From: Candidatus Babeliales bacterium
GTDB lineage: Bacteria; Babelota; Babeliae; Babelales; Vermiphilaceae
Direction of reading: 5' to 3'
Assembly (NCBI GenBank): GCA_963743635.1
Contig: CAVUQO010000002.1
Coordinates: 530,568-594,567 of the forward strand
DNA length: 64,000 nucleotides
Shown: positions 11,695 through 38,970 of the stretch, one piece after another
Numbering within the stretch: position 1 is the first letter of the stretch
How the letters are laid out: every line of letters starts with the position of its first letter
Position numbers and translations under genes: made by a program
Notes under the pieces: generated by a model
What the model was told of the DNA's origin: nothing
Database searches by the model: none
Seen by the model: only the letters and a program-made list of their open reading frames with translations

Positions 11695-12672
11695 TTATTG
11701 GTTTTGTCTACAATATGGACATGTTTTAGTGATATTGGGATCATAGAGATTATTGAGATCGATACACTCTTTATGGAATTTATGTCTGCATCTTAATGAT
11801 TTAATGGGGCGAGCACTATCCATCGTGGAATAGCATATGCTGCACTTGTTATCGGCGTTCTGAATTTCTTCAGGCATATCTGCTGCTGGCATAGATTCTT
11901 TTATTTCGCTTACCAAAAACCATGCAACATTTCGATTGTTCTGCTCAGCAGTGAATGCATGTAACGCTGAATGATCTTCTGTGTTATCAACATGGCCTTC
12001 TAGTAATCGTTCAGTATTGCGTGACTTCTTATGATTAAGATATGCCAAACCTGCACCAATAAGAATAGCGGCACCGGGTTTTAAGATAGAATCCTTGGTT
12101 CCATTCCACAGTATCGGCTTCACAATATCAAAAGATCCTGGATATTTTGTATTTAAGGCATAACATTCGCCGACGACTGTCAGAACACCTATTGTGTTTG
12201 CAAGAAGAGCAATAGATTTGTAGAATAGACCGGTGGTAAGGATGCTCTCGAGTGCATCATGAATATCACGCTCATTGCGTAATGTTGCGATCGTGTTTTT
12301 CGCCGATTTCTTATCATGAGCTTCATAGGTAATAGTGCCTTTGACCTCATAGACACGATCATAGTAGGTATGATCAAATCTATTAATTGGTGTGCCAAGT
12401 GTACTAGTATCTATTGCAATTGAATCATTGAGCTTAAGCTTGGCTTTCCAGTCATTTTTCAATTGTGTGGCCCCTTGAGGTTCCAGAGATTTAAGAATTC
12501 CGGCCACTTCAGGCATAGTTGGTGCTTGCACCAAAAGAAATGGTCTTTCTAATAAGCTTGCCTTCAGCAGTTTCAGCGATTTTGGTAATGGATCCATTGC
12601 CTGCATAGTCCCCTGGGAAATTAATCCCATGGTGAATGCGAGTAGTATTGATTTTAAAGTCGTCTTTTTCAT
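11695..12672 (-). CDS. Secreted protein with a C-terminal RING-H2 zinc finger (putative E3 ubiquitin ligase effector)
   Basis: Signal peptide ending QGTMQAM; CSIC...CRHKFHKEC...CPYCR. Confidence 0.85.
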   Translation of the reverse strand: MKKTTLKSILLAFTMGLISQGTMQAMDPLPKSLKLLKASLLERPFLLVQAPTMPEVAGILKSLEPQGATQLKNDWKAKLKLNDSIAIDTSTLGTPINRFDHTYYDRVYEVKGTITYEAHDKKSAKNTIATLRNERDIHDALESILTTGLFYKSIALLANTIGVLTVVGECYALNTKYPGSFDIVKPILWNGTKDSILKPGAAILIGAGLAYLNHKKSRNTERLLEGHVDNTEDHSALHAFTAEQNNRNVAWFLVSEIKESMPAADMPEEIQNADNKCSICYSTMDSARPIKSLRCRHKFHKECIDLNNLYDPNITKTCPYCRQNQ

Positions 12673-12710
12673 TATGGAGCCTTCATATTCGTTATTTTAA
12701 TTGAGATCAA

Positions 12711-13907
12711 TTATTGTTGTACTCTTCTACAGGTTGGGCACGTGAGCGCGTGATGATTTGTTCTTTGTGTTGCAAACCACCGATTGATGCAATCTGCATG
12801 AAATGTGTGTGCGCAAGTCAGTACTCTTAGATTATTATCATGAGATGGTATAGCATCCTGACAAATAGCACATTCACTTTCTTCCGCTTCATTTGCATCT
12901 ACGTGACGTTCAGCTACTGGGTGCGCTGCAACTGCGGCTCCTGGTAGTGCATATGCTGGTTCTGGTGCTTGTGCAGGGCGGTAGCTTTCAGCGATATGGA
13001 GCGCATTGTATGCGAGATGTACTCCACTAATACACATGAAGCCTATACAGACTCCTGCCACTCGAGGGAACTGGGTGACTATTCTACTTAAGGCAGAAGT
13101 TACCGATCGAGCAACCAATGATGGCAAAGTATTTGGTTCGATTTGTTGTGTCGGTGGTGTAATACCCAGAATGCGATCTCTCATGCGATCGCCGAGCGCC
13201 TGTAGGTTCTGTAATGATTCAAGAAGTGTGTCTTCAAATATACTGCGACGAGCTCCGAGATTTTGTAATGCTTCAATAAGTTTATCGAGTAATTTTTCTT
13301 GTCTGATTGCGGGAGCTTGCACCGAAGTCAATATATGATATGCCGCGATTGGAGTAGTTACGACTCCTGAGCATAACGCTGCGCAAAATATGTCGTATTG
13401 TTCAGGATTGAGTCGGCGTAACCTTGCCAACAGTGTATCAATGTTGTTTGAAATATCTGCGTTGATGCGATTCATAGCAACAGTTAATCTTGTTGCAGTC
13501 GGCATAATGCACGAATAAGAAGCAGGTTCTATTACTACAGGTTCTGCTGCTTGTTGGCGTGGCGCAATATCAAAAAGTTGTCTGCCGGTAAGTCTATTTA
13601 AAGCGTCTAGACCGGGTGTGATAACTGAGTAATGTCTGTCGTTTTCATTTGGTTGTTCCTGTACGGCAGGAGCTTGTTCTTGTCTTCGTGGCATGACATC
13701 AAAGAGCTGTCTGCCGGCGAGTCTATTTAGCATCTCTAGGCCGGGTGTGATAACTGAGTTATGTGTGCGTTCAGCTACTGCTGGTGCGGGTATTTCTGAT
13801 ATCTGAGAACTTGGCGATAATCGACCATTCATTGCCTGCATAGTTCCCTGGGAAATTAATCCCGCGGTGAATGCGAGTAGTAATTTTTTTATAGCTGTTT
13901 TCTTCAT
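12711..13907 (-). CDS. Secreted protein with an internal repeat and C-terminal RING-H2 zinc finger
   Basis: Same leader as 11695-12672; CAIC...CAHTFHADCINRW...CPTCR; repeat HNSVITPGLEMLNRLAGRQLFD / HYSVITPGLDALNRLTGRQLFD. Confidence 0.88.
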   Translation of the reverse strand: MKKTAIKKLLLAFTAGLISQGTMQAMNGRLSPSSQISEIPAPAVAERTHNSVITPGLEMLNRLAGRQLFDVMPRRQEQAPAVQEQPNENDRHYSVITPGLDALNRLTGRQLFDIAPRQQAAEPVVIEPASYSCIMPTATRLTVAMNRINADISNNIDTLLARLRRLNPEQYDIFCAALCSGVVTTPIAAYHILTSVQAPAIRQEKLLDKLIEALQNLGARRSIFEDTLLESLQNLQALGDRMRDRILGITPPTQQIEPNTLPSLVARSVTSALSRIVTQFPRVAGVCIGFMCISGVHLAYNALHIAESYRPAQAPEPAYALPGAAVAAHPVAERHVDANEAEESECAICQDAIPSHDNNLRVLTCAHTFHADCINRWFATQRTNHHALTCPTCRRVQQ

Positions 13908-14260: not shown

Positions 14261-14890
14261 TTACTTTGTAGGGATTTCAAGATTGAATGTATTGGAGTTA
14301 GTTTTCATGAAATCAAACCAGCTGTTTGATCGCAGTTCGATTGAAGTCTCCAAAAAATCAGGGACAACAAAGGATTGTGTTTTCCCGTCGGCATCTTTAG
14401 GGTATTCAACGTCAGCAAAAATCACTGTTTTAAATGTTGATCCTGGTTCAATCGTAATAGGTTGATCGCCCGAGCTAAATCGTTCAATGAGTGGCTTTAA
14501 GGCCTGCAGCTGTCCTGCTAGGTTGGATGTTGCAAAAGCGAGAGGTATAAGAGCGATCGTTATTACAAAAAAGAACGTACCAATATTGAGAGCGCTTATT
14601 TGTGAGTCTATGCTTTTTGGTGTGAGTACTTTGGCATTCAATACTTCAGTGAAGTTATTCGAAAATACTGTAGCCTTACTGCTATTATTCGTTATAGAAA
14701 GAATGATGGGATAGACATGTTTCGTATGCAAATCTTGATAAAAAGTATCTAAGCATTCTCCTGCAGACATTGCCCGTGCAGTGATAACTATTCCATCCTG
14801 TGATTGCGAAACGAGCTCTGGTCTAGCGGCATATGCCAGTGGGCTGAGTAATGCCAACGCGAGAATTATTTTAGATAGGTTGAGATTCAT
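14261..14890 (-). CDS. Secreted/membrane hypothetical protein
   Basis: MNLNLSKIILALALLSPLAYA signal peptide; internal hydrophobic segment. Confidence 0.7.
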   Translation of the reverse strand: MNLNLSKIILALALLSPLAYAARPELVSQSQDGIVITARAMSAGECLDTFYQDLHTKHVYPIILSITNNSSKATVFSNNFTEVLNAKVLTPKSIDSQISALNIGTFFFVITIALIPLAFATSNLAGQLQALKPLIERFSSGDQPITIEPGSTFKTVIFADVEYPKDADGKTQSFVVPDFLETSIELRSNSWFDFMKTNSNTFNLEIPTK

Positions 14891-15159
14891 TGTTATGACT
14901 CCATTCTGATATAAAAGGTGCACTAAAATGATGGTAGTTTAGCCTAATTATGAAACAATAAAAAGGGACTTTTTAGACCGACCTTTTGGCCGTTCAGATT
15001 GGGAAATGATGGATGAGTACAGGTGATTTTTTTGCCTATTGGTTAGGCAGGATAGGTACCCTACTTCGCTAAAGCTTCGAAGGGCAGGCTGGCTCGCCAT
15101 TCATTTTTATCGGCTGCGACGGAAGCGTTCAGCTAAAGAGGATTGAAAAATGAATGTTT

Positions 15160-15408
15160 TTACTGTCGGAAGAATCGCTTCATTATAAAAGCTCTTCCTG
15201 ACTGAGTCTTTAAATATTTCTCAAATTCTATGGCTGTAGATTTTTCCATAAACCCTGTGTGAGCAATCATATTCCAGGGTCTATATTTAGCTGTATGAGG
15301 TGATCCACCAGTATTGTGAATTCGTAAACGATTAGAAATGTTTGCTGTGTAGCCAATGTAAATTTGGTCAGGATCAGCAATCGAATGGAGTAAGTATACG
15401 TAATACAT
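15160..15408 (-). CDS. Stand-alone GIY-YIG nuclease (UPF0213-like)
   Basis: MYYVYLLHS...IYIGYT...RLRIHN...TAKYRPW...EFEKYLK. Confidence 0.9.
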   Translation of the reverse strand: MYYVYLLHSIADPDQIYIGYTANISNRLRIHNTGGSPHTAKYRPWNMIAHTGFMEKSTAIEFEKYLKTQSGRAFIMKRFFRQ

Positions 15409-15866: not shown

Positions 15867-16052
15867 ATGTCAATTTTAGGGTACGGGTTAAGTATACGGT
15901 GTTTATTGCAAAAATCAACGAATCCGACACGGTTTGTGCATTTTATCTTACTCGCGATATATGGTATCATAGAGTATATAAAGTATCAGTTCAGGTTGCA
16001 ATGATCGAATCGGGTACAATTTTATACGTAAATCATCAAATAAAAGGGGGTC

Positions 16053-18631
16053 ATGATGGCTCAAAAACATAGCTGGATTAAGGTCTTCGGTGCCAAAGAG
16101 CACAATCTAAAAAATATTAATGTCGATATTCCCAAGGATGCGCTGACGGTTATTACCGGGCCATCTGGATCAGGGAAAAGTTCCTTAGCGCTCGATATTC
16201 TCTTTACTGAGGGTAAACGGCGTTATATGGAGTCATTGTCTTCTTATGCCCGTCAGTTTCTTGGTGTCGCTAAAAAGCCTGATGTAGATCGTATTGATGG
16301 GCTGTGTCCAGCAATTGCAATTGAGCAGAGTACGGTTGGTTCAAACCCACGCTCAACGGTCGGCACCATTACCGAAATTTATGATTATTTACGCGTGCTT
16401 TATGCGCGTATCGGTCAAGTCCATTGCCCTAATTGTCGCATGCCTATTCGCGCAGAATCTCCTGAAAATATTACTGCTATGTTACTTGAAAATTTCAATG
16501 ATCGCCGTATTGCCATTGCGGCGCCTGCAGCGCACGAAAAAAAGGGTGAGTTTACCAATGAAATCCTTGATCTTTTTATAAAGGGTTTTTATCGTCTACG
16601 CATCGATGGCGTCATGCATCGATTTCGACTCAGAAGCTGAAGTAAAGGCGCTTAAGTATCAAAAAAACATACAAACACACCATTGACGTGATGATCGATC
16701 AGATTGACGTACATCATGATGATCGCGCGCGTTTGCAAGAAGCGATCGAAACCGCATTTAAATTGAGCGGCGGCATGGTAAAGATTATTGTCGGTGAGCA
16801 GGAGCATATGTATTCATCGCATCGCATGTGTATTCGCTGCGCCGAATCGATGCCAGAACTCGAGCCGCGATTTTTCTCATTTAACTCACCGATTGGTGCG
16901 TGTGAGCAGTGTCATGGTATTGGCATTATTCACGAATGGCCATGGGAAGAGGGTGATGCTGAATCATGGAAGGAGCGATATCCGGATTATTTTGGCCATC
17001 AGTGCGCAAGAAAAACACTTGTTCGCAGTGTCATGGCAAGCGTTTGAATAAATATGCATTGGCGGTCACTATAGGCAGCAAAAATATTTATGACGTTTGT
17101 GAACTTTCGGTAAAAGATTTATGTGCCTTTTTTGAAACGCTCAAACTCAATCGATACTGACCAAGAAATTGGCGGAGGTTATGGTACAAGAAATTTCAAA
17201 CCGATTACACTTTTTATATGATGTTGGTCTTTCCTATCTTTCGATGAATCGTTCAGCTCGCACACTTTCAGGCGGTGAAGGGCAGCGCATTCGCCTTGCA
17301 ACGCAAATTGGTTCCGCATTGAGTGGCGTTTTATATATTCTTGATGAGCCAAGTATCGGTTTACATCAGCGTGATAATGATCGCTTGATTGAAACCTTAA
17401 AAAAGTTACGCGATCAGGGCAATACGGTGGTTGTCGTTGAGCATGATATGGATACGATTGAACAATCAGATTATCTCATTGATATGGGGCCTGCAGCCGG
17501 CGTATTGGGCGGGCAAGTTACCGCGTTTGGTACACCAAAACAGGTTGCGCGCAAATACCGATTCTTTAACGGGTGCCTATTTAGCTGGCCGACGTGCTAT
17601 TGCCGTGCCTAAAGTGTTACGAAAGCCAGAAAGCTGGTTAACGCTTGCACATGCTCGAAAAATAATTTAAAAGATTTGACCGTACAAATTTCCGCTTGGC
17701 GTTATTTGTGGCGATTTCGGGCGTTTCGGGTTCCGGTAAAAGTACGCTCATTATGCAAGAATTAGTTCCTGCAGTAGAACGAGAATTGCTCGGCAACAGA
17801 CAGTTCCCGTGCCAGATGCCGATTCAGGCGATTTGCAGGGCGCAGCACATGCTTGAAAGTATGGTGGTGATTGATCAAAGCCCGATCGGCCGTACGCCGC
17901 GCTCAAATCCAGCCACCTATTTGGGTGTGTTTGATGAGATTCGTAAGTTGTTTGCGAGCTTGCCAGAAAGTAATGCGCGCGGGTATAAAGTTGGGCGCTT
18001 TAGTTTTAACGTGCCTGAAGGGCGTTGTTTTGAATGCCATGGTGATGGTGTTATTAAAGTGACGATGCATTTCTTGCCTGAGGTAACGATGATATGTAAA
18101 TCATGTAACGGCAGACGCTATAATAGCGAAACACTTGCACATTATCTATAAAGGCAAATCGATTGCAGATGTTCTTGAAATGACTGCTTATGAAGCGCTT
18201 GAATTCTTCAATGCACATAGCACGATTGCAAAACGATTACAGTTGCTGTGCGATGTTGGCCTTGATTATCTTAAATTAGGCCAAGCATCAACGACGCTTT
18301 CAGGCGGTGAAGCACAACGTATTAAGCTCGTTGATGAACTTGCAAAGCGCGGCAATAAAACGCTTTACATTCTTGATGAGCCAACAACTGGTTTGCATAC
18401 AAGTGATATTGAAAAATTACTTGATGGTGCTTAATCGGCTTAGTCGATAAAGGTAATTCAATGATTGTGATCGAACATAATCTTGATGTGCTCAAAACCG
18501 TTGATTATCTGATTGATCTTGGCCCTGAAGGGGGCGATGCGGGCGGTACGATTGTAGCTACCGGTACGCCGCGTGAAGTAGCCAAAGCTCCGGCAAGTTA
18601 CACCGGCAGATATCTGAAGAAATTATTGTAA
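16053..18631 (+). CDS. uvrA: Excinuclease ABC subunit A, broken by many single-base frameshifts; insertion domain largely absent
   Basis: [84 protein letters not shown]...[11 protein letters not shown]; ends YLKKLL-TAA at 18631. Confidence 0.95.
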
Positions 18632-18805
18632 CGCGTACAGCATTAAAAAGGTTAAGGGCCTCGAAGATACTTTCTTCGAGGCCCTTTTTTATGTTTGCTG
18701 ATTACTATTCAGACGGCTTCTTGTTAGATGTGAGAAGAATGCAAAGAACTACGTTGCTCTCATCTAATTCTCGCTTTCAATAACTACTTTCAATAAGTTG
18801 AGACC

Positions 18806-19273
18806 TTAGGGATATGAAGGGGCCCATAGAATATTTTGATTTTGTATGATATTACGAATGATGCGTGTGGCTAAGTGCCGATATGTGGGCTGCATCGCAT
18901 AATAGGCATCTAATACAGCCGCAATCAAATTAAATGGGATTGGATTTTGTGGGTTATTTTGGACAAAGTTCACAAGTTCGTAAAATAAGTTCATATTATT
19001 ATCTCTCAGAGCCTCAAGTTGTCGAATAATAGTTAGGTATGTCTGTGGAAAACATAGGAATTGACCATTGTTTTCATAGATTCGGTAGTCGCCATCTTCT
19101 TCTTGAAGTGTAATGCCATTGAGATGTCGAGTCTGCAATTCTGTAACAATGGCATCATCGTTCATGGCGTCCACTTGTAGCTTTATGTGTGCTTGAGGAC
19201 CAAGATTCATTGCCAATACTGACTGTCCATGGCAAACCAGGGCTACCATAGTTAATAGTTTTAAAATCTTCAT
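18806..19273 (-). CDS. Secreted protein, MKNLK-leader family member 1
   Basis: MKILKLLTMVALVCHGQSVLAM leader; mature part aligns by eye with the 19513, 23638 and 24444 proteins. Confidence 0.8.
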   Translation of the reverse strand: MKILKLLTMVALVCHGQSVLAMNLGPQAHIKLQVDAMNDDAIVTELQTRHLNGITLQEEDGDYRIYENNGQFLCFPQTYLTIIRQLEALRDNNMNLFYELVNFVQNNPQNPIPFNLIAAVLDAYYAMQPTYRHLATRIIRNIIQNQNILWAPSYP

Positions 19274-19512
19274 ATTCTTTTTTCCTTTTTTATTAATGGT
19301 TAATGTTTGTTATCAACTATAAGAATACTAAAAGTTAAAGTTAAAAATCAACAATTTTCAACACTTTTATCATTTACAGGTTGAGATTTTGGTGCGCTGC
19401 GCGTGAAATAGCCAAAATTCCGGCACGTTACATAGGCAGATATTTGAAGAAATTATTGTAATCGAACATAAAAAGAGTTCCCGGCGGCCACTCATTTTAT
19501 GTTCTTCGTAAA

Positions 19513-20000
19513 TTATCGACTGGGTTTTGGTACGTGCGTTAAATTACGATTTTTTATGATGTGCTTGATAACTGCGTCGCTTTCTTTTTTTTCATAGTCG
19601 TTATAATTAATGATGTCATAACCAACAACAGCTGTAAGTAAATTTAATGGTAAGAGGTTATTTTCGTTATCGGGATTTAGGACGAAATTTTGAATTTGAT
19701 TGAATGTTCCGCAATCAGTTAGGCGTAAATTGGCAAGTAAATCGCAGGTTGCAAGATACTGTCTTGCCCTGCCTAAATCGATATATTGATTTGGTTGATT
19801 CGGCTGTGTAGCATATACCCATATTCGACCATTTTCCACGTACCCAAATCCATTGAGTGTTTCTGAGCGCTCTTCGACCATGTCATCACTCATATTTTCT
19901 AATTCCGTATAATTTGTTGTCTTTGTTGCTCTGTCAGTGCCAGTGCTAATTGTCCGTAGCACAGCAGGGTGATGAGAGCCATTAATTTTAGGTTTTTCAT
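19513..20000 (-). CDS. Secreted protein, MKNLK-leader family member 2, with a frameshift near 19908
   Basis: ATG at 20000 gives MKNLKLMALITLLCYGQLALALTEQQRQQI; the protein continues in the ORF-track frame as TELENMSDD. Confidence 0.75.
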
Positions 20001-20332
20001 ATTCTTTTTCTCCCTTTTTGGTCACGCCATAACTTTAGCGACGGCGGATTGTGAATATTAATACTATAATCATTTACTAGCTTAATAAAAGTTAAAGTGA
20101 AAAATCAACAATATTATCGCCCAATGACTTATGATTTCAGGTTAAAAAGGCGAAATTTATGGTTTGTAGTCTCAAGGGGGAGACTGCCCAGGGTGGGCCA
20201 CAAAAGCCTTATTTTAGCTGTCGAAAAGCTGAAGGTGATATTTGAAGAAATTATTGTAACGCGTACAGCATTAAAAAAGATAAGGGCCTCGAAGATACAC
20301 TCTTCGAGGCCCTTTGTTATGTTTTCTGATTA

Positions 20333-20860
20333 CTATTCCTTTTTCCCAAGAAGTGAGGGATGAGTGGGTAGTTGAGGTCGTCTTAATGTTATGTCGACAC
20401 TCGATGCCGGAACATTTGGCGCGGTAGGCGTGCTTTTTGATGATGAACCACGGTATGCAGGAAGATTGGTCTTTTTCGCTTGCTCTTCTTCTTCTTCTTC
20501 CACTGGAAATGCAGGCCGTCTGAGTTCTGCTTGTGAGGCTTGTGGTTGTTGCTGAAGGAGGGAAGGATGGATAGGAAGCTCAGGCCGTCTCAATGTTGTG
20601 TCGACACTCGATGCTGCGCTGCTTGAAGATGCAGGGGCTTTTTGGGAGCTTTCGGTGAGACTTAAGCGTATTGCCTCTTGTATCATTGCATCCTCTTCTC
20701 GAGCTCGTGCCTCTGCCGCTGCTTTTTGGGCATCTATGATACGTTGAGCCTCGTGTTGTTTTTTAACTCTTTCAAGCGCTTGCTCGCTCATTGCGAACAT
20801 TGGTTGGGCACAGAAAGTTAATGTTAGTGCAATAATGTTTATTATTTTGCATGTCTTCAT
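20333..20860 (-). CDS. Secreted low-complexity protein with a UIM and Pro-rich repeats
   Basis: Leader ending QPMFAM; EEDAMIQEAIRLSLTE fits the UIM consensus; SSVDTTLRRPELPIHPSLL / SSVDITLRRPQLPTHPSLL repeat. Confidence 0.75.
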   Translation of the reverse strand: MKTCKIINIIALTLTFCAQPMFAMSEQALERVKKQHEAQRIIDAQKAAAEARAREEDAMIQEAIRLSLTESSQKAPASSSSAASSVDTTLRRPELPIHPSLLQQQPQASQAELRRPAFPVEEEEEEQAKKTNLPAYRGSSSKSTPTAPNVPASSVDITLRRPQLPTHPSLLGKKE

Positions 20861-21070
20861 AGTACGTGGATCCTTTGAAAAAAGGGTTATAAAAGTTCAT
20901 TATGTTCAAAAATAAAAAAGGGAGCGCGAAAAACGCAATATATTTCATTGGGTGTCGGAATGTGTGGCTCGATTTTTGGAGAATGTGCGATCGCTCTAGA
21001 GTAAAGTAGGCCTTGGGAATACATGCTCTAAGGCCTACTCGTATTGCTTAGCGATTCTTTTGGCAGTTGA

Positions 21071-21355
21071 TTACTGCTTGCGCGTTCGCTTACGGTTTCT
21101 GAATAGCTTTTCAAGCGCTTTATCAAGTTTTGCTTCCGCTCGTTCCTGTTCAAGTAGATCCGAGGCTTTTTCAAGTTGTTCGTTCGCGCGTTGAATGTCT
21201 AGTATTGCTTCTCTTCGAGATTTTGTAATATCTGCCTGCAGTCTAGCATCGAAAGCTTGTTCTGTTTGGCTGAGTCTCTCTCTTTCTGTCATCGCCAGCA
21301 TTGATTGCCCGTAGCACACCAATACCACGAGAGCCATTAATTTTAGATTCTTCAT
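21071..21355 (-). CDS. Secreted coiled-coil protein with MKNLK leader and an unrelated payload
   Basis: Leader identical to that of 23638-24126 through SMLAM; basic C-terminus RNRKRTRKQ. Confidence 0.75.
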   Translation of the reverse strand: MKNLKLMALVVLVCYGQSMLAMTERERLSQTEQAFDARLQADITKSRREAILDIQRANEQLEKASDLLEQERAEAKLDKALEKLFRNRKRTRKQ

Positions 21356-21375
21356 ATTCTTTTTCTCCTTTTTTA

Positions 21376-21406
21376 GTCACGCCATAGCTTTAGCGACGGC
21401 GGATTA
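21376..21406. mobile_element. 28-nt palindromic element plus TTA duplication in a 5' UTR (also at 20021-20048 and 24147-24174)
   Basis: Filled site ctcctttttta-gtcacgccatagctttagcgacggcgga-ttatgaagatt versus empty site ctccttttttatgaagatt at about 24907-24925. Confidence 0.65.
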
Positions 21407-21434
21407 TGAAGATTAATGTTAATTATCAATTACC

Positions 21435-21464
21435 AGCATAATAAAAGTTAAAGTTAAAAATCAA
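21435..21464 (-). promoter_or_regulatory. Conserved sigma70-like promoter TTGATT-N18-TAnnnT upstream of all five MKNLK-leader genes
   Basis: TTGATT-tttaactttaacttttat-TATGCT here; equivalents near 19322-19351, 20079-20108, 24206-24235 and 24944-24973. Confidence 0.65.
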
Positions 21465-21716
21465 CAGTTTTCGACTTTTTTGTATCATTTGCAGGTTGAG
21501 ATTTTGGTACGCCGCGCGTGAAATACCCAAAATTCCGGCATGTTACATAGGCAGATATTTGAAGAAATTATTGTAACGCGTACAGCATTAAAAAGGTTAA
21601 GGGCCCCGGAGATACGCTCTTCGAGGCCCTTATCTTTTGTTTTCTGACTGCCCTAGAGTAAAAAAGAAGGGCGCAAAATGCTATGCATGGTGTTTGGAAT
21701 GTATAAATGCATAATA

Positions 21717-23429
21717 CTAATCCCCATTCCATCTTCCTAGATCGAGTATCGTAATTAATTTACGAGCTTTTATGGCAGCTCGGCCAGCATTTCTGTTCTG
21801 TGCTACTTCTTCAAATATTGCACGAGCCCCTTGATAGTCCCCACTATTTGCAGCGTTTCTACCTTCTGTCAAACGAGCCCAAGCCGCTTGTTCAGCGGGG
21901 GATTCATCATAAAAAGAAGATAATGATGTTTGTGCCGCGCCCCCAAACTGAGGGGTTGTTTGCTCTCGAGTAGAAGCCTGGCCAGATTCAGTTTGAACTA
22001 CCGATTTTTTACTACATGGTGGCATTAAGAATGTGGCATAAAGTTCGGTGTCAGTTGCCGTTTCAGTTGATTTTGAGGTGAATTGAATCCGAGTGACCGT
22101 GAATTCAGAGTCAACAAGTTTGAATTCATTGCCAAACATATCCGGACCGAGGCCTGAAATGCCTAGTATTTGCAGTATGTTATTTCGCTGTACTGAACTC
22201 AAACCATCTATGAAATTAAAACGTTCAGTTTCTTCCCAAATGGCCTTTCCATCAGCATCTACCCAAACATTTTCTCCAATCATGTTCCGGACAAGCTTTG
22301 CTCGTGCGCTCGGCTGATTTCGTGCAAGTACTTCTTTTATATACGGTGGATTTAAACGACCCAATGAGATATGCAGATTGTTGCCTGTTAATACTTCATT
22401 TCTTTCTTGGGGTGTATAGGTTCTGAATGTTTTTGGCAATTTGGCTGAATCCATAAAACAATTGCCATTCTGGGTTTGGACTCTTTGTAAATGATTTTTA
22501 ATGGTATCAAGGAGCGATAGGAGTGCTTCGCCTGATTGGCGCGATTGGGGGAGTATTGCGAGCGGAACCCATATTTTTTGATGACTTCCATACGGAGGCC
22601 ATTTTATGCTGCCAGTTGTTAAATCCAGAGGTCCGCATTGCTGTGAGACAGACCACTCATTGATGGCGGTTTCCACTGTTCTTACTACTTGATTGATAAT
22701 ATCATTTCGTCTTGGATCTCCATCATACATATCACCAAGAGTTGGCAGCGTAATGTGAATATTGTCGGGATCTTGTTCGTAAAAAGAAAGGCATTTTTGT
22801 TTTGGTGGTATGAGAGTGAGCAATCGTATTGGTGCTGTTGGATGTGATTGATTGTAGGGTAAGATTTGCTCGTTGTTAAATCTCACTATTTCTTTGTTTT
22901 TTGCATTAATTTGCTCAGGAGTTGCGGTTGATGAATCGATTTTTTGTGGTCGTGCTTTGTGGAGGTCTGTGGGCAGAACGGAAGCCGCATTATGGTATCC
23001 AGCGTTGATCCGATTAATCTTTTCTTGCTCTATTGGGAAAAAATTGCAGTCCGGATCTCTGATATTATTGATTTGAGTAATCTCGTCTTTTACATTCCGT
23101 ATAAGGCCTCGAACCTTTTGTATTACGGTTGGCAAGTGTTCAACGTTGATGATTAAAGCATAGGTTCTTAAGGTACCTTGCTGAGAGGGTACATATGCCG
23201 CAATAGGGGCAACCTGGGAGGCGGATGATGCTGCGCTTCCTGAGGATACCGGGGGCCTTTGGGAGCTTTCGGTGAGACTTAAGCGTATTGCCTCTTGTAT
23301 CATTGCCTCCTCTTCTCGAGCCCGCGCCTCTGCCGCTGTTTTTAGTGCTCGCTCGTTCATCGCCAGTACTAATTGGCCATAGAAGGTAAGTGAGAGTATT
23401 GCAATCACTATTTTTTTGAATGTCTTCAT
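21717..23429 (-). CDS. Secreted protein: UIM plus predicted 2H phosphoesterase domain plus C-terminal TPR-like helix pair
   Basis: Leader ending VLAM; EEEAMIQEAIRLSLTE; PDNIHITLPTLG and NLHISLGR (paired HxT/HxS motifs); WARLTEGRNAANSGDYQGARAIFEEV. Confidence 0.7.
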   Translation of the reverse strand: MKTFKKIVIAILSLTFYGQLVLAMNERALKTAAEARAREEEAMIQEAIRLSLTESSQRPPVSSGSAASSASQVAPIAAYVPSQQGTLRTYALIINVEHLPTVIQKVRGLIRNVKDEITQINNIRDPDCNFFPIEQEKINRINAGYHNAASVLPTDLHKARPQKIDSSTATPEQINAKNKEIVRFNNEQILPYNQSHPTAPIRLLTLIPPKQKCLSFYEQDPDNIHITLPTLGDMYDGDPRRNDIINQVVRTVETAINEWSVSQQCGPLDLTTGSIKWPPYGSHQKIWVPLAILPQSRQSGEALLSLLDTIKNHLQRVQTQNGNCFMDSAKLPKTFRTYTPQERNEVLTGNNLHISLGRLNPPYIKEVLARNQPSARAKLVRNMIGENVWVDADGKAIWEETERFNFIDGLSSVQRNNILQILGISGLGPDMFGNEFKLVDSEFTVTRIQFTSKSTETATDTELYATFLMPPCSKKSVVQTESGQASTREQTTPQFGGAAQTSLSSFYDESPAEQAAWARLTEGRNAANSGDYQGARAIFEEVAQNRNAGRAAIKARKLITILDLGRWNGD

Positions 23430-23637
23430 GAGACCCTCAATTCTTTGAAATAAGATTATAAAAGTTCATTATGTTCAAAAATAAAAAAGGGAGCGCGAAA
23501 AATGCAATATATTTCATTGGAGTCAGAATATGCGGCTTGATCTTTGGAGAAATACTTGTAACACGTACAGAGATAAGGGCCTCGGAGATACGCTCTTCGA
23601 GGCCCTTATCTTTTTATTCTATCGGCAGCTTTCGCAT

Positions 23638-24126
23638 TTACCGTGGCATGTTCATTGTTACTATGTGGTTGATGACAGAACCTGGCGCCGAGTTCCCTTC
23701 AAAAATAACAAGCATTGGATACTGCTTAAGTTCCTCAGCATTTTGTATATTTGCTGGGAAGGACGTGTCTTGGCTTCTAGAAGTCTCTATTGCGGCCACA
23801 TAGCGGTTGTAAAAGTCAGGATTAGATGCTTTTAATGCTCTCAGCTGATTGAGTAAAGATATATAATATCTAGCAGTTCCCCACATACGTGGAGCATCAG
23901 GGGAATTGCCTATGATAAAGTTAAGTACCGGATTGCCTTCATCATCTTCCTGCATTTTCACGTCATTAATTTTAATACCATTAAGAGCATTGATTTCAGC
24001 CTTTAACGTGTCTGCTTCCATCTTCATCACTGCTTTATCAATCTCTTCTCCTGAGATGCTCATTGCCAGCATTGATTGGCCGTAGCACACCAATACCACG
24101 AGAGCCATTAATTTTAGATTCTTCAT
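23638..24126 (-). CDS. Secreted protein, MKNLK-leader family member 3
   Basis: MKNLKLMALVVLVCYGQSMLAM; LNG...ARYY...LRALK...VINHI pattern shared with the paralogs. Confidence 0.8.
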   Translation of the reverse strand: MKNLKLMALVVLVCYGQSMLAMSISGEEIDKAVMKMEADTLKAEINALNGIKINDVKMQEDDEGNPVLNFIIGNSPDAPRMWGTARYYISLLNQLRALKASNPDFYNRYVAAIETSRSQDTSFPANIQNAEELKQYPMLVIFEGNSAPGSVINHIVTMNMPR

Positions 24127-24443
24127 ATTCTTTTTCTCCTTTTTTAGTCACGCCATAGCTTTAGCGACGGCGGATTATGAAGATTAATGTTAATTATCAA
24201 TTAACAGCATAATAAAAGTTAAAGTTAAAAATCAACAATATTATATATTAAGTTTTAAATAAGGCTTAAATTTACTATTTTTCGCTGGAATTAGTACATT
24301 TAGGAGGATGTAGGGCAGGGTAGAATAGGTGAAGAAAATAGTTGCAAGACGTGCAGTATTAAAAAGATAAGGGCCTCGGAGATACGCTCTTCGAGGCCCT
24401 TCTGGTAATAATATTGGACTATTTTCTTCTGCTGAGCAGATTA

Positions 24444-24899
24444 TTACTTAATATTTATTGTGTAATTCCGATTTTGCATGATGTGAGCGATTATGTCTCT
24501 GGCAAGGGCGATGTCTTCATAATTATCACCAATAACAGCTTGGAGTAAAGACCATTTCAAGGATGGATAATCTATACGTTTATAGTTATTCATAATGCTT
24601 TCGAATGTTGTCGCATCGGTTTCGCGCAACTCATTGACCCATCCTAGAATCAATAAATATTCTCTTGGAGTGCATAACTTAGACGATGTCCCATCCAATT
24701 TTTTATAAAAATCTGACGACCCATCGCGATTGTAACCTATGCTACCGCCTTTTAATTTCGTCGCAATATTATCCACTTGTTGTTCGGTCATGCTATCTAT
24801 CTCGTTCTTAATGACGGCTCTTTCCGCATCGTTAAGCGCCAGTACTGATTGCCCGTAGCACACCAATGCCACGAGAGTCATTAATTTTAGATTCTTCAT
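24444..24899 (-). CDS. Secreted protein, MKNLK-leader family member 4
   Basis: MKNLKLMTLVALVCYGQSVLAL; PREYL...LRETD...LLQAV...IIAHIMQNRN. Confidence 0.8.
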   Translation of the reverse strand: MKNLKLMTLVALVCYGQSVLALNDAERAVIKNEIDSMTEQQVDNIATKLKGGSIGYNRDGSSDFYKKLDGTSSKLCTPREYLLILGWVNELRETDATTFESIMNNYKRIDYPSLKWSLLQAVIGDNYEDIALARDIIAHIMQNRNYTINIK

Positions 24900-25061
24900 A
24901 TTTTTTCTCCTTTTTTATGAAGATTGTACTATTACCAGTTATCAGCTTACTAAAAGATAAAGTTACAAATCAACAATATTGGTGATTTGTTGGTACATGC
25001 AGGTTTGAATCATGATATTTGGCCAGTTTTCTTTGTCCTTTTCCGAGGCAGGCCACGAAGA

Positions 25062-27728
25062 TTATTGGCTATCGAACGGTCGTTCTTTTAGCTTCCAAAG
25101 AAGATCAAAGGCCATTTTTGGTGAGAGCTCATCGTAATTGAGTGTCCTGAAGGGATTGAGAATTTGCTCGAGGACAGCCGCTTTTTGATGCGCTTCTTTG
25201 TAAGCATTCAAAAGTTGCTTGTTTTCGGTGCGTAAAGCCGTTAGTTGGTGGCCGAGGAGGGCGTCAGTTTCCTGATCGCGGACAGCGCCTTGCATGCTGC
25301 GAGCTAATGCCGCGCTTTGCTGCTCTTCGCTGACTTGTAAGGTTTGCAAAATATGTTCAGCGCGTGTAATGACTGCGCGTGGCAATTCGGCTCGTTTTGC
25401 CACTTCTACGCCAAAGCTGCCATCGGCAACGCCCTTAACAATTTGATGCAGTAGTACAATGCCATGTTTGCCATTACTGCTTGCCGCATAATAACTCGCA
25501 ATGCCAGGCAGATAATCTTGTAGGTGCGTAAGTTCATGATAATGGGTTGCAAAAAGGCAACGCGCTTTGATGTGCGTATGGATGTATTCCACTACCGCTT
25601 GCGCGATTGCAAGTCCATCGAAGGTACTCGTACCGCGTCCTACTTCATCAAGGATAACTAAACTTCTTTCCGTTGCATGTTGGCAGATATGTGCCGTTTC
25701 TTCCATTTCAACAAGAAAGGTGCTCTTCCCTTGCGCCACGTTATCGCCAGCGCCGATGCGCGTAAATATGCGATCCAAGAGCGGTAATGATGCTGCTTTT
25801 GCCGGCACGTATGAACCAATTTGTGCCATAATTGAAATGAGTGCAACCTGGCGTAGGTAGGTTGATTTGCCGCCCATGTTTGGTCCGGTGATGATCCATA
25901 ACGATTCTGCATCGGTGAGCATCGTATCATTTGGAATGAAACGACAATCCAAGCTTTGTTCAACAACCGGATGGCGGCCTTGTGTAATTGCTATTGAACG
26001 TGCATCATTCCACGTTGGGCGTATATACCCGCGTTCATAAGCCGTATATGCAAGGCTTAAGAGTACATCAAGATGGGCGAGTGCATGCGCTGCCTTGCGC
26101 AACGGATGTATTTGCTCAAAGACCTGCGCTTTGATTTCTTCAAATAACTGTTTTTCAACGGCATCGATTTCATTACGTGCGGTGACTAGTTCATGCTGCA
26201 GATTTTGGAGCTCGGGCGTGATATACCGTTCGCGGCCGACGAGTGTTTGTTGGCGCTTATAGTGTGCGGGCACTAAATCAAGATTGGTTTTGGTAATTTC
26301 AATGTAGTAACCATGCACGTTATTATAGCGAATTTTGAGTGAATTAATGCCGGTTGCTGCTTGTTCTCGCAATTCAAGATCAAGAATGTTTTTATGCGCA
26401 TTGTGCACGAGTGAACGCATGCGATCAAGTTTGGCATCAAATCCTTGTTTGATGATCCATTCTGTACTGGTATCGGTATTGAGTGCACGCTCGAGTAGAT
26501 CACATAATGCGCTAAAATCGCCCAAATACTGATGTATGCTTGCAAAGATAATCGTCTTTGTGTGCGGGTAGAGCAGTTCGCGCAATTGTGGTAATCGCGA
26601 GAGTGATTCATGCAATGCCTGATAATCATGCATATGCGCGCGATTGAGTGCGATGCGGCCGATGATACGTTCTAAATCGCCAATTCCTCGTAAACCTTTT
26701 TGCGTTTGCTGCATGAGCGTAATGTGTTGCATAAAGGTGGCAATAATGTCGTGCCGATGCGCTATTGCATCCTGTTTGACGAGCGGGCGCAGGAGCCATT
26801 TTTTGAGCATGCGAGAACCCATTGAGGTGGTAGCCGTATCGAGAACTGAAAAAAGTGTGTGCGCCGTACTGCCATCATGATTGTTTTTAACGAGTTCTAA
26901 ATTGCGTTGCGTTGCCGCATCGATGAGCAAAAAATCATCCGGTTCATAAAAATGAATGGAGGTGAACTGTTCAAGGGATGATGATTGGGTGCGTTTAAGG
27001 TAGGCAAATAAATTGTAGAGTGCTTGTTGTAGTGCTGCATCAGTGCTTACCTTATCATGCGTTTCTCGATGCAATGTACGTTTGATGAGTGCGCGTATGC
27101 TATCGGTTTCATCATGATCATGCATGATGGTGGTGAAGTAGCCGAGTTGTTTGAAATTTTGTTGCAGCTGTTTTGCTTCAGACGATTGCGGAATTAAAAT
27201 TTCATCGGGGAAAAAGCGAGAGAGCTCGGCCTCCAGTTGTTTAACGCTGTCTGTAGGCAGGATCGTGGCAAAAAGTTGTGCGGTTAATAATTCGCCAAAT
27301 ACCAAGCCCCATGATGTTTTAAGCGGTACGAAGGAAAATAAATAGGATGCAGATTTTTCATTGAGCAGCGTACTTTCAACGAGGGTGCCGGGAGTGAGCA
27401 ATTGTGTGACGCCTCGTTTAACGACAGTGCCTGGCTTTGGCTCTTCAAGCTGATCGCAGATGGCAACTTTAAAGCCGCCTTTAACCAGCTTTGATACATA
27501 ATGATCTCGCGCATGGACAGGGACGCCGCAGAGCGGGATCGGTTCCCCCTTACTTTTGCCTCGTGCGGTGAGGGTAATGCCTAAAAAGGCCGCTGCGGTC
27601 TTCGCATCATCATAGAAAAGCTCATAAAAATCCCCCACCTGGAACAAAAGGAGTGCGTCAGGATACTCGGCCTTTATGGCCTCAAATTGTTGCATTAAGG
27701 GGGTGGATTCTTTTTTATCTATGTCCAT
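25062..27728 (-). CDS. mutS: DNA mismatch repair protein MutS
   Basis: TPLMQQF, FQVGDFYELF, ITGPNMGGKSTYLRQ, STFLVEM, DEVGRGTST, FATHYHEL; intact 888 aa. Confidence 0.98.
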   Translation of the reverse strand: MDIDKKESTPLMQQFEAIKAEYPDALLLFQVGDFYELFYDDAKTAAAFLGITLTARGKSKGEPIPLCGVPVHARDHYVSKLVKGGFKVAICDQLEEPKPGTVVKRGVTQLLTPGTLVESTLLNEKSASYLFSFVPLKTSWGLVFGELLTAQLFATILPTDSVKQLEAELSRFFPDEILIPQSSEAKQLQQNFKQLGYFTTIMHDHDETDSIRALIKRTLHRETHDKVSTDAALQQALYNLFAYLKRTQSSSLEQFTSIHFYEPDDFLLIDAATQRNLELVKNNHDGSTAHTLFSVLDTATTSMGSRMLKKWLLRPLVKQDAIAHRHDIIATFMQHITLMQQTQKGLRGIGDLERIIGRIALNRAHMHDYQALHESLSRLPQLRELLYPHTKTIIFASIHQYLGDFSALCDLLERALNTDTSTEWIIKQGFDAKLDRMRSLVHNAHKNILDLELREQAATGINSLKIRYNNVHGYYIEITKTNLDLVPAHYKRQQTLVGRERYITPELQNLQHELVTARNEIDAVEKQLFEEIKAQVFEQIHPLRKAAHALAHLDVLLSLAYTAYERGYIRPTWNDARSIAITQGRHPVVEQSLDCRFIPNDTMLTDAESLWIITGPNMGGKSTYLRQVALISIMAQIGSYVPAKAASLPLLDRIFTRIGAGDNVAQGKSTFLVEMEETAHICQHATERSLVILDEVGRGTSTFDGLAIAQAVVEYIHTHIKARCLFATHYHELTHLQDYLPGIASYYAASSNGKHGIVLLHQIVKGVADGSFGVEVAKRAELPRAVITRAEHILQTLQVSEEQQSAALARSMQGAVRDQETDALLGHQLTALRTENKQLLNAYKEAHQKAAVLEQILNPFRTLNYDELSPKMAFDLLWKLKERPFDSQ

Positions 27729-29887: not shown

Positions 29888-30187
29888 ATGAAACGTATTT
29901 ATTTTAAAATTATCGTTCTTATGGCTGTTTTTGCTGTAGCAACACAGATGCAGGCGGGTAGGCCGAAAACAGCGCATGCAAAGCATGAAAAAGGGAGCCT
30001 CGTGACGCCTGCAGAACAAGACATAATGTTAGCAGCCGTCGCCAGCACCGATCAACCGCTCGAAAACTATTCATTAGAATCGAGTCTCAATAACTTGTCA
30101 GTAGAAAAAGTTGCAGTATTAAGTGCGCAATTAGAAAATACATTGAAAAATTTACATTACTCAGAGAGTCTTTTGTGGCGATCGTAA
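29888..30187 (+). CDS. Secreted hypothetical protein, MKRxY-leader family
   Basis: MKRIYFKIIVLMAVFAVATQMQA. Confidence 0.7.
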   Translation: MKRIYFKIIVLMAVFAVATQMQAGRPKTAHAKHEKGSLVTPAEQDIMLAAVASTDQPLENYSLESSLNNLSVEKVAVLSAQLENTLKNLHYSESLLWRS

Positions 30188-30213
30188 TAGTATAAATTTA
30201 ATGGAGGATTATA

Positions 30214-31530
30214 ATGAAACGTACTTATTTTAGAATTATAGGCCTTACGGCCATATCAATAGCTTCGCAGCACGCGTATGCGATGCAGAATGTAGTGAAG
30301 ACAATGTCGCGATTGATGCCGGTAATAACGGCATCAGCCAGAACAGCCGTCACCCCAACGGTTGCACCAGCGGCACGATTATTTACGGCGCAACCTGCAC
30401 GCTTAGCATCTACGGTTGCATCGCGTAATACATTTGGCTATCAGCCGGTTGAGAATGCAGCGCTTTTTGGAAGATCATTTTCTAGTACCGCAATCAGGCA
30501 TAAACCAGATTTTAGTTCTAAGGATCCCTACAAAGTACTCGATGTAAAACCTGGATCTTCAAAAAAAGAGATTAAAGCAGCTTATTATAAAGCTATGCAA
30601 GAAAATCATCCCGATACAAATAATCATCCCGATGCAAAATCGAACGCTCAGAAACTTAATGATGCCCATGCAAAGCTGACAGAAAAAGATACAGATGATC
30701 AAGGCTTTCAAGCCGAGGGATTTCAAGATGATTTCCAGAAAGCTGCGGCTTATCATCAAACATTCTATCAACCTTCAGCAAACCGCCAAGCGGCAATAGA
30801 TAGATCATTTTCATATGCATATCGTTGTGAACTTCCTGCACATATTTACGGTAATTTCCACGGTAAAGGGCCGCACTTTTTTGAAGGTGGGCGAGTTATA
30901 GCAGTAGGTTTACGCTCTTTTGATCGAGAACCTGTTGATCCAGATCATGTGAGAGGCGAAATTACCTTCCGACAATTTGGTTCAGGGATTCTTGACGGAG
31001 AATATTTAGAGGTTGAATATACCCGCCCAATCACTGCAGAAGATCGCGCAGCGAAAGCAAAAGTTAAAGAAATACTAGAGCGCGAATTGCCTGACATTGA
31101 AAAAAGACGGCTGGCTATTCTTGATAAGTGGGTTGAATATGGCGCATTGGATAACGACTATAATTACTTGTTAAATAAACGCGAAAACAAGTTTGTTGAC
31201 GTAGAAGCGTGTGACTTTAAATTGGGCTTTGGATTTATCTTGTATGATCGATATAACAAATTTGGCACTACGGTAGTGAATAAGGCAGAAAGAGCAAATA
31301 TCATTTTTGGAAATGTAGTTGATCAAGTGACTATAGACGATCTTATATACCATAAACAATGGAAATGTCTTGATCAATACGTCAATAAGAGCATTGTAAA
31401 TGAAAAATGGGATCTTGAAAAAAATCATGAAAATCTCGTGAAAAAGTATGAAGAAGCATTAGCGATTCATAAGCAAAAGCAATATAACAACATGATTGAT
31501 CGCATGATCGGTGATTCAGAGCCGTACTAA
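30214..31530 (+). CDS. Secreted J-domain protein with a mitochondrial-presequence-like segment
   Basis: MKRTYFRII...HAYAM leader; Arg/Ser/Thr/Ala-rich stretch ending GRSFSSTAIRH; DPYKVLDV...EIKAAYYKAMQENHPD. Confidence 0.8.
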   Translation: MKRTYFRIIGLTAISIASQHAYAMQNVVKTMSRLMPVITASARTAVTPTVAPAARLFTAQPARLASTVASRNTFGYQPVENAALFGRSFSSTAIRHKPDFSSKDPYKVLDVKPGSSKKEIKAAYYKAMQENHPDTNNHPDAKSNAQKLNDAHAKLTEKDTDDQGFQAEGFQDDFQKAAAYHQTFYQPSANRQAAIDRSFSYAYRCELPAHIYGNFHGKGPHFFEGGRVIAVGLRSFDREPVDPDHVRGEITFRQFGSGILDGEYLEVEYTRPITAEDRAAKAKVKEILERELPDIEKRRLAILDKWVEYGALDNDYNYLLNKRENKFVDVEACDFKLGFGFILYDRYNKFGTTVVNKAERANIIFGNVVDQVTIDDLIYHKQWKCLDQYVNKSIVNEKWDLEKNHENLVKKYEEALAIHKQKQYNNMIDRMIGDSEPY

Positions 31531-31770
31531 TGTCATTATGAGATTAAGGAAAGGCAGGATTAAACTCCCTGCCTTTTTTTGTGCCTTTTCTATCCGGTCT
31601 CTGACCTTGGGTAAACCTGGGGTGATCTGTGTTTCGGTCAAAATTTAAAAAAAAGCCAATAAAATCGCACAAATCATTGATTTTGGTCATTCCAACTTGA
31701 TACTATTATGGATGAGAAGGGGGATTGATGGTCAATCTCCGATTATTCTATATTTCAAGGTGAGGGACTG

Positions 31771-32091
31771 ATGAAACGTACTTATTTGACTATATTTGCT
31801 GTGGTGGCACTCTGTGCGGGAATGCATCAATTACAGGCAATGCATAGCGAAGAAATGAAGAGGATAAACAGGCGTATAAGTGTGCTAAAATACAAGGGTA
31901 ATACTGAAAGAAATAATATTGAAATGTCTGAATTATATGCGCGAAAAAGAGAACTAGAGCGACTTGACGTGGAGCAAGCTGCGCGAGGGCTCAGACAGAT
32001 GAGGCAGGAGCCACAGGGTAGAGATTCAGACGATGACGAGTTTAGACAGATGCAGCAGGAGCCACAGGGTGCAGATTCAGACGATGAATAG
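31771..32091 (+). CDS. Secreted hypothetical protein, MKRxY-leader family, with an acidic C-terminal tandem repeat
   Basis: MKRTYLTIF...QLQAM; RQMRQEPQGRDSDDDEF / RQMQQEPQGADSDDE. Confidence 0.7.
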   Translation: MKRTYLTIFAVVALCAGMHQLQAMHSEEMKRINRRISVLKYKGNTERNNIEMSELYARKRELERLDVEQAARGLRQMRQEPQGRDSDDDEFRQMQQEPQGADSDDE

Positions 32092-36722: not shown

Positions 36723-36774
36723 GCCGGTTCAAGGATGTCCATATATCTCTTTAAGCCAACAAATGATATAGTCT

Positions 36775-36950
36775 CCGTTCGCCCTGAGTGTTCTGAGCCG
36801 AATATATATGAAGGCGAAGAATGTATCGAATGGGTATGGAGCAAAATTAATATGCAATATTTCATGTTATATAAAATTATAAGCCAATATATCCCCGACC
36901 CATTCGATACATTTCGATCCTTATGGATCGAAACACTCAGGGCGAACGGG
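36775..36950. repeat. Inverted pair of REP-like elements with an AT-rich spacer
   Basis: Left arm ccgttcgccctgagtgtt-[variable]-aatgtatcgaatgggt; the right arm is its reverse complement with a different internal hairpin. Confidence 0.85.
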
Positions 36951-36993
36951 GAAAATTCCAATTTTATTGCATAGAAATATGGAAGGAAAATAA

Positions 36994-37602: not shown

Positions 37603-37614
37603 AGTAGGGAGTTT

Positions 37615-38958: not shown

Positions 38959-38970
38959 GTTAAAGGGACA

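Follow-up and report, generated by a model that had tools for sequence, protein, structure and literature searches.

Putative recombination-built array of exported-protein genes between uvrA and mutS in a Babeliales genome

In Dependentiae, proteins that have a signal peptide but no known relatives take up a large part of the small genomes. The known members are intracellular parasites of protists, and in Chromulinavorax 44% of the genes have a predicted signal peptide, a set enriched in orphans (both according to the accessible text of PMC6561590). Here we consider a 64,000-nt stretch, hereafter the window, of a Candidatus Babeliales genome (assembly GCA_963743635.1, here G000; 1.45 Mb in 3 contigs, 85% complete), located on contig C2 (CAVUQO010000002.1) at positions 530568-594567. 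Within it, seven genes for secreted-type proteins lie between uvrA and mutS, interspersed with copies of the uvrA 3' end, which raises the question of how such a series arose. Our comparisons make it likely that this locus is an array of complete exported-protein expression units that was built by recombination, has no machinery of its own and reflects a lineage-wide habit. The comparison pool comprised 40 related genomes, none of them in the genus of G000. The closest relatives of the UvrA of a sister locus, L036, are 63-81% identical to it and come from Candidatus Dependentiae, Babeliales or TM6, which places the organism in the Dependentiae.

The array between uvrA and mutS

All seven minus-strand open reading frames (ORFs) that the first-pass annotation of the window had placed between the two genes are present. 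They converge on uvrA (16053..18631, plus strand, stop at 18631), and mutS (25062..27728, minus strand) forms the far boundary. We label uvrA ends, or stubs, as U, hairpins as T, and the two types of promoter, ribosome-binding site (RBS) and leader as P and Q. Along the plus strand, the first half of the array reads U0-T0, gene 1, P; U1, another hairpin, gene 2, P; U2-T2, gene 3, Q; U3-T3, gene 4, P. The second half reads U4-T4, gene 5, Q; U5-T5, gene 6, P; U6-T6, gene 7, P.

The hairpin T0 (18654..18686) begins about 20 nt past the uvrA stop. It has T runs on both flanks and fold z scores of -7.55 and -6.60, and resembles a bidirectional terminator common to uvrA and gene 1. Hairpins of this type recur at 18654, 20282, 21599, 23575 and 24369, with a decayed copy at 21004-21040; a search of viral contigs for the pattern gave 0 matches. 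By sequence comparison, the plus-strand stubs comprise U1 (19391..19461), which ends at the stop codon, U2 with T2 (20237..20314), U4 with T4 (21506..21631) and the decayed U6 with T6 (24319..24401). On the minus strand, the Q-type promoter regions of gene 3 (20861..21040) and gene 5 (23430..23607) hold, respectively, a decayed stub with T3 (21004-21040) and the decayed U5 with T5 (23575-23607). The copies at 19391 and 21506, earlier put at about 70 nt, extend 61-68 nt into the coding end of uvrA (68 coding nt for U4), and the copy at 20237 extends 22 nt. U1, U2, U4, U5 and U6 all score better than 2000 of 2000 shuffled sequences, the copies at 23533 (U5) and 24319 (U6) being weak. It had been proposed that the hairpin or the last uvrA codons follow every gene. 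This pattern is confirmed. Behind gene 2, a hairpin unrelated to T0 takes its place (19464..19504, fold z -4.39). U3, near 20970, is not above chance as a uvrA copy (1594 of 2000 shuffles equally good), its sole link to the uvrA end being an 82% match to the copy at 23519.

The stubs have a history of their own. U1 and U4 have in common a 2-nt insertion, several substitutions and a promoter-side junction (19290-19461 vs 21404-21576, 88%), and therefore descend from a single stub. Against uvrA, their synonymous to non-synonymous codon differences are 1:4 and 1:5, a mostly non-synonymous pattern that points to neutral decay. We rejected the idea that the stubs were inserted one by one and are older the farther they lie from uvrA, given that U4 is better kept than U3 and that U1 and U4 are sisters. 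The earlier proposal of growth by tandem duplication with a breakpoint in uvrA thus holds in part: duplicated units do carry a uvrA stub and the shared bidirectional terminator, but the insertion and substitutions common to U1 and U4 speak against repeated fresh breaks in uvrA.

Front ends and bodies of the seven genes

Five genes have P-type front ends, all on the minus strand. These are located at 19274..19358 (gene 1), 20001..20117 (gene 2), 21289..21471 (gene 4), 24060..24242 (gene 6) and 24900..24990 (gene 7). The modules of genes 4 and 6, each comprising promoter, RBS and leader, are identical at 179 of 183 positions, including the 5' untranslated region (5'UTR) and synonymous sites, and the identity ends one codon past the predicted signal-peptide cut. 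Their bodies show no similarity (170 of 1000 shuffles equally good), in agreement with the earlier description of near-identical 5' modules on unrelated proteins. A palindromic insert of about 31 nt in the 5'UTR occurs in genes 2, 4 and 6 and is lacking in genes 1 and 7; with up to 2 mismatches allowed, the genome contains 3 copies of it. By leader, genes 4, 6 and 7 group together (90-97%), at 76-79% to gene 2 and 67-73% to gene 1, while by body the group is genes 1, 2 and 7. Three adjacent segments, 5'UTR, leader and body, thus give three incongruent groupings. A two-gene framework is also repeated in order, 20610-20983 matching 23227-23551 and then 21289-21631 matching 24060-24401. The leaders resemble Sec signal peptides by inspection, with a basic start, a hydrophobic core and small residues ahead of the cut, and the array products are probably Sec-exported. 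The promoters are putative, a consensus scan having found 21 sites against 17.2 expected, which is chance level.

Contrary to what had been implied, the bodies are not all unrelated. With leaders removed, those of gene 1 (18806..19273, 155 aa), gene 2 (19513..20000, frameshifted after codon ~33) and gene 7 (24444..24899, 151 aa) are homologous (z 9.6-15.6, 0 of 1000 shuffles). The more distant body of gene 6 (23638..24126, 162 aa) is weakly similar, with 2 of 1000 shuffles as good against gene 1, 8 of 1000 against gene 2 and 209 of 1000 against gene 7. These four minus-strand genes form one lineage-restricted family, family A, whose bodies are 13-30% identical to each other. A profile of the four found 13 matches among 1.84 billion representatives: the four themselves, 8 proteins of 141-170 aa and 1 unrelated-looking repeat protein. 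Seven of the 8 outside proteins have the same MK(I/L)LK leader type, and one is closest to gene 6. The family has no Pfam label and no usable Atlas match, and 260 other genomes of the order yielded no full match and one weak N-terminal match. No array protein has a passing Pfam match. The charged helical body of gene 4 (21071..21355, minus strand, 94 aa) resembles no other array body in the leader-stripped comparison; among 4 candidates of 51-165 aa, the range searched, it matched only itself, with none in the genome. The low-complexity tail of gene 3 (20333..20860, minus strand, 175 aa), which contains a 60-nt internal repeat, also gave no relative. The bodies thus appear either to diverge fast (family A) or to lack known relatives (the gene 3 tail and gene 4).

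Gene 5 (21717..23429, minus strand, 570 aa) provides a second case of mismatched parts. It has a Q-type (MKT) leader, a UIM-like motif, a core and a helical tail. Genes 3 and 5 had been described as having common upstream DNA and a UIM block before diverging, and we find 87% identity upstream and 88% in the block, with the leader in between lower, at 65%. In L036, the orthologue of gene 5, whose core is 57% identical, combines promoter and leader of the P type with another tail. Since the front end and UIM-like block of gene 5 match those of gene 3 and not those of its orthologue, gene 5 is, on this comparison, a chimera. Together with the incongruent groupings and the gene 4/6 match that ends at the signal-peptide cut, this supports exchange of bodies behind conserved front modules. 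The first-pass annotation had proposed payload swapping between fixed modules; the swapping is supported by the mosaic groupings and by the orthologue with another front end, whereas the modules are not fixed, the leaders differing by 3-35%, and four of the payloads are paralogs.

Could the same pattern result from plain tandem duplication and rapid divergence, with one or two ancestors, leaders kept by selection on export and expression, and bodies never exchanged? Conserved signal peptides ahead of fast-evolving bodies are common, four of the seven bodies are homologous, and U1 and U4 decay neutrally, all of which would fit. This explanation does not account for genes 4 and 6 being nearly identical even in the 5'UTR and at synonymous positions while their bodies stay at shuffle level, for a gene 5 front end unlike its orthologue's and like that of gene 3, or for the three incongruent groupings. 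For genes 4/6 and 3/5 it appears largely refuted, and as an account of the whole array we consider it unlikely.

The core of gene 5 (~22002-23198, ~400 aa) is quite probably a 2H phosphoesterase, a prediction based on motif and profile comparison. The 2H superfamily includes LigT/ThpR, AKAP7-like proteins and coronavirus NS2a. Gene 5 resembles it in two conserved H-x-T/S motifs, HITL at residue 225 and HISL at residue 353, with H225-I-T-L and H353-I-S-L invariant in 7 rows from 2 lineages, and in its alignment with Babeliales PF13563 proteins. Using hhalign, in a targeted single comparison with 16 of the 18 extracted 2H proteins (two longer than 300 aa were left out), the core aligned across both motifs over 104 columns with a probability of 77% (E 2e-5), against 1.2% for the reversed control and at most 0.41% for 15 shuffles. 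It differs from the superfamily in its large insertions, signal peptide, UIM-like motif and lack of a Pfam match, for either the protein or its alignment. In an Atlas feature search, which we treat as a lead only, three unnamed clusters ranked first, followed by 2H families with scores of 0.88-0.89. One other cluster of gene 5 relatives was found (9 members, 52%). There were no shorter relatives among 1812 candidates, none in genome contigs and 0 matches of the profile to PDB sequences. Two AlphaFold models were unusable (predicted local distance difference test ~40), and Foldseek gave no match for the second. Separately, L130 1336-3135 (G000 C2:175-177 kb) encodes a 599-aa signal-peptide protein that combines an alpha/beta-hydrolase-like part (GHSFG) with a 2H-like C-terminal domain, PF13563 being below cut-off.

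Some array products may act on the protist host. The label of effector, used earlier, draws on the lifestyle of the phylum and on the UIM-like motif of genes 3 and 5, which has the acidic-A-x-x-S pattern and falls below the Pfam cut-off (PF02809, 12.7 bits vs 21, E 0.12).

As a side observation, the core of the 5'UTR insert of genes 2, 4 and 6 (20021-20053, 21376-21402 and 24147-24173) is also present at 15066-15077, adjoining the gene for a small GIY-YIG nuclease (15160-15408), which has a passing Pfam match. We presume that the insert may be a repetitive extragenic palindromic (REP)-like element moved by nucleases of the GIY-YIG type.

Orphan gene ends in the genome and in related lineages

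The module system is not specific to uvrA, as had been implied. A nhmmer profile of the P module gave 29 matches in G000 at E up to 1, mostly at starts of ORFs with similar leaders and in several clusters. Front ends shared by genes with dissimilar bodies amount to 17 pairs in 14 G000 tiles vs 1 pair in 2.1 Mb of compared DNA. In 20-kb tiles and for ORFs of at least 150 aa, orphan 3'-end copies accompany 15 of 1040 G000 ORFs, 16 copies lying downstream and 2 upstream. The same scan, which drops stubs of more than 147 coding nt (hence that of L032, described below) and the broken uvrA of the window, found 1/563 ORFs in 800 kb of four other Babeliales genomes, 1/324 in Babeliales-type uvrA loci and 2/525 in other prokaryotes. 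The excess is significant against Babeliales-type DNA (15/1040 vs 2/887, Fisher p 0.005); all comparison DNA gives 4/1412, and a second Fisher p for the excess is 0.002. The genes between a target gene and its stub are mostly signal-peptide-like. At these loci we take the target names murC, ftsY, holA-like and mntA as presumed labels only.

Stub lengths vary from 22 to 269 coding nt. Of the 16 listed copies outside the window, 9 have an end no more than 7 nt from the stop. In the stubs outside the window, 78 of 122 differences fall at third positions, with 68 synonymous vs 41 non-synonymous codons; at G000 loci alone the ratio is 36:35, with some loci at 9:1 and 7:4, and L032 contributes 23:2 of the outside total. 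Because the differences favour third positions, some stubs would be displaced working alleles from another strain, and others decayed copies. The genome contains recA, a comEC-family gene and dprA.

Two relatives have stubs of uvrA itself. In L036, an intact uvrA is followed by a hairpin homologous to T0, the gene 5 orthologue, a uvrA stub, another hairpin and other genes. This stub of 111 nt is 89% like the uvrA of L036 and 78% like that of the window, with synonymous to non-synonymous differences of 8:4, and records an independent event. L032, from another family of the order, has a stub at 14385-14594 with 269 coding nt and a ratio of 23:2, judged from its codons the clearest displaced allele seen. 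We also compared 20 Babeliales-type loci picked from the 40 genomes, mostly where uvrA and mutS matches were on one contig. At 19 of these, mutS follows uvrA in the same direction with few lineage-specific genes between, so the uvrA-mutS interval is a general variable site; no relatives of the array genes were found there at E 1e-4. Only in the window and in L036 is mutS inverted relative to uvrA. A uvrA stub was found in 0 of 38 other bacteria and archaea.

These data also bear on a site-specific origin, in which an integron-like system or tandem accretion at an att site, with an integrase acting in trans, would insert cassettes into the uvrA 3' end. The direct repeats at gene ends do resemble attL/attR, G000 has 3 tyrosine and 2 serine recombinase matches, and a toxin-antitoxin-like pair and a 12-kb island in G000 are both bounded by a stub with 99% identity. 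Yet the recombinase matches (PF00589 and PF00239) all lie outside the window in this 85%-complete genome, in accord with the earlier remark that no integrase is visible in it. The left boundaries of the uvrA stubs differ (-68/-61 and -22 in the window, -116 in L036, -269 in L032), no common junction motif is evident by eye among the stubs, including those of 12 other target genes, U1 and U4 are copies of one stub, and decay does not rise with distance from uvrA. We therefore regard such an origin as very improbable.

That the repeats arose in the assembly of noisy long reads is the least credible explanation: frameshifts in uvrA and gene 2 are missing from short-read contigs and no listed contig covers the entire array, but contigs of three runs match most of it with 0-1 differences, the differences among repeat copies are patterned, and L036 has the same design independently. 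The runs (X1, X2 and X3) come from two studies, X2 from another study than the rest, and X1 is possibly from the source sample of G000. Their contigs match 18631-19456, 19264-19641, 20904-21466, 21609-23287 and 24372-26382 with 0-1 differences; the array is not a mis-assembly, which settles a doubt raised at the outset. The short-read contig over uvrA (15900-18644) differs from G000 by 71 letters and 18 gaps, and contigs of all three runs agree on the other letters, without the extra bases of G000. As the short-read contigs do not share the frameshifts, those of uvrA are probably assembly errors, and the broken uvrA frames (16053-18631) are an unpolished stretch and not a pseudogene. The frameshift of gene 2 (19513) between its leader (start 20000) and body is probably also an error, since 3 substitutions and 4 gaps separate G000 from the short-read contig that covers 19432-20266. 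One X2 contig joins 24079 to 21309, running from the gene 6 body through the shared module, a 124-nt identical stretch, into the upstream flank of gene 4. This may be the join expected of a 2771-nt circle or a tandem repeat; an assembler path is as likely, because the 124 letters fit both sides. Run X2 also has low cover at 24126-24582, on which no conclusion is based.

Several observations weigh against a recombination-built array as part of a lineage-wide habit. If leaders are under strong purifying selection and bodies evolve fast, part of the pattern could arise with no exchange at all. Roughly one in three of the 15 stub genes belongs to a paralog family, and some stubs and module pairs are decayed or distant paralogs, gene 1/gene 6 being among the 17 pairs. 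Competence genes are widespread, occurring in 10-11 of 14 controls. U1 and U4 appear to decay neutrally, so that displacement by a foreign allele is not demonstrated for the uvrA-mutS locus of the window, and errors in the assembled uvrA blur this comparison. Stubs of uvrA are rare in the order, at 1 of 20 Babeliales-type loci (L032) and 0 of 23, in sets that were not deduplicated. Finally, the sister comparison involves one lineage, L036, and the genomes compared include no close strain pair with different arrays.

Proposed route, comparable systems and neighbouring loci

We propose that recombination built the array in three steps. The ancestor would have had a leader-bearing gene facing uvrA and sharing its bidirectional terminator, an arrangement seen in L036. 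An insertion or duplication with one illegitimate join about 70 nt inside uvrA would then have left uvrA whole and placed an orphan end and terminator behind the new unit. Anchoring at uvrA would follow because the terminator abuts the stop, so that any event keeping it must break inside uvrA. In the third step, suggested by the mosaics, the repeats of stub plus terminator, P and Q would be acted on by unequal crossing-over and gene conversion of the RecA type; these processes would multiply units, homogenise front ends in patches and place old or new bodies behind them. At other loci, the orphan end may have been displaced by incoming strain DNA through homology-facilitated illegitimate recombination after DNA uptake, and such uptake may be one source of cargo.

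Known systems offer partial parallels. Integron or att-site arrays differ, as this one has neither an integrase in the window nor, by eye, a recombination site with constant boundaries. In the promoter-early stem-loop (PeSL) shuffling of T4-type phages, as far as the accessible text of PMC2839356 and PMC4122927 describes it, repeated terminator and promoter units lie between non-essential, often orphan genes of a variable region and recombine by homology without a dedicated recombinase, with circles possible. The array would work likewise without being a member: it lies in a bacterial chromosome between uvrA and mutS, its terminator carries a piece of a housekeeping gene, and its repeat extends into coding sequence (RBS and signal peptide), so that exchange would make fused exported proteins. 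In the type VI secretion and rhs/cdi arrays of V. cholerae, which form by sequential displacement through homology-facilitated illegitimate recombination, cargo lies behind a conserved anchor, the former 3' end is left farther downstream as an orphan and no integrase is known, according to the accessible part of PMC5361080. Similarly, anchors with an orphan 3' end past new cargo occur in the window, L036, L032 and at 15 other G000 genes. Here, however, the anchors are housekeeping genes (uvrA and others) and not toxins, the anchor stays the same protein, the cargo consists of whole convergent genes with no immunity genes recognised, and the window's own stubs have no demonstrated foreign donor. 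The array also appears to work like the tandem secreted-paralog clusters ssl, spl and lpl of S. aureus (accessible text of PMC2568036), but has unrelated bodies, including a 2H enzyme candidate and orphan peptides, behind the same modules, which are common to other arrays in the genome. The literature searched, mostly outside subscription journals, held no description of such arrays in Dependentiae. We regard the array as one case of a recombination habit that extends across the lineage and draws on known processes, and it can be viewed as a variation on PeSL-type shuffling combined with 3'-end displacement.

The locus thereby offers a concrete and dateable route by which ordinary recombination may supply proteins of this kind, by duplicating whole expression units, exchanging front ends at the signal-peptide cut and adding cargo behind core genes. 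With orphan gene ends as a marker, gene gain can be counted in uncultured parasites, and gene 5 offers an enzyme candidate that can be tested. Much more tentatively, the lineage might make host-directed proteins genome-wide without an integrase, with cargo gained behind core-gene stops, where displaced allele ends are left, and with portable promoter-RBS-signal-peptide modules, exchanged via circles or conversion, making exported proteins in one step out of foreign domains and even of formerly non-coding or orphan sequence, such as gene 4; gene 5 would then be an exported, ubiquitin-targeted 2H phosphodiesterase cutting host nucleotide signals.

Related arrangements occur elsewhere. Two repeats of one gene end (99% at +654, 95% at +12363) occur at G000 C2:296447-309837, where they delimit a toxin-antitoxin-like pair and a block of signal-peptide genes 12 kb long. 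At C3:664002-670722, a metal ABC-transporter operon is interrupted by three paralogous repeat-protein genes, alongside two copies of the 3' end of the upstream gene. Within the window, neighbouring genes in the region 12592-13907 (C2:543159 and 544394) have a common MKKT leader module (85% over 81 nt) with no body similarity detected, and the block 35397-39621 is inverted relative to uvrA/rplU when compared with the loci of relatives. A second small array, of three genes, lies behind rplU (29888-32091). These genes have an MKR(I/T)Y leader in common but differ in their bodies, one of which includes a J-domain, and the rplU terminator recurs at 31551 and 32119. In L036, an rplU 3'-end stub and terminator (841-965 and 3383-3507) lie upstream of intact rplU and bound a beta-propeller gene with an MKRTY leader, a rare upstream stub. 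In L021 (841-4730), the entire rplU and a neighbouring 649-aa gene are duplicated around a transposase-like ORF.

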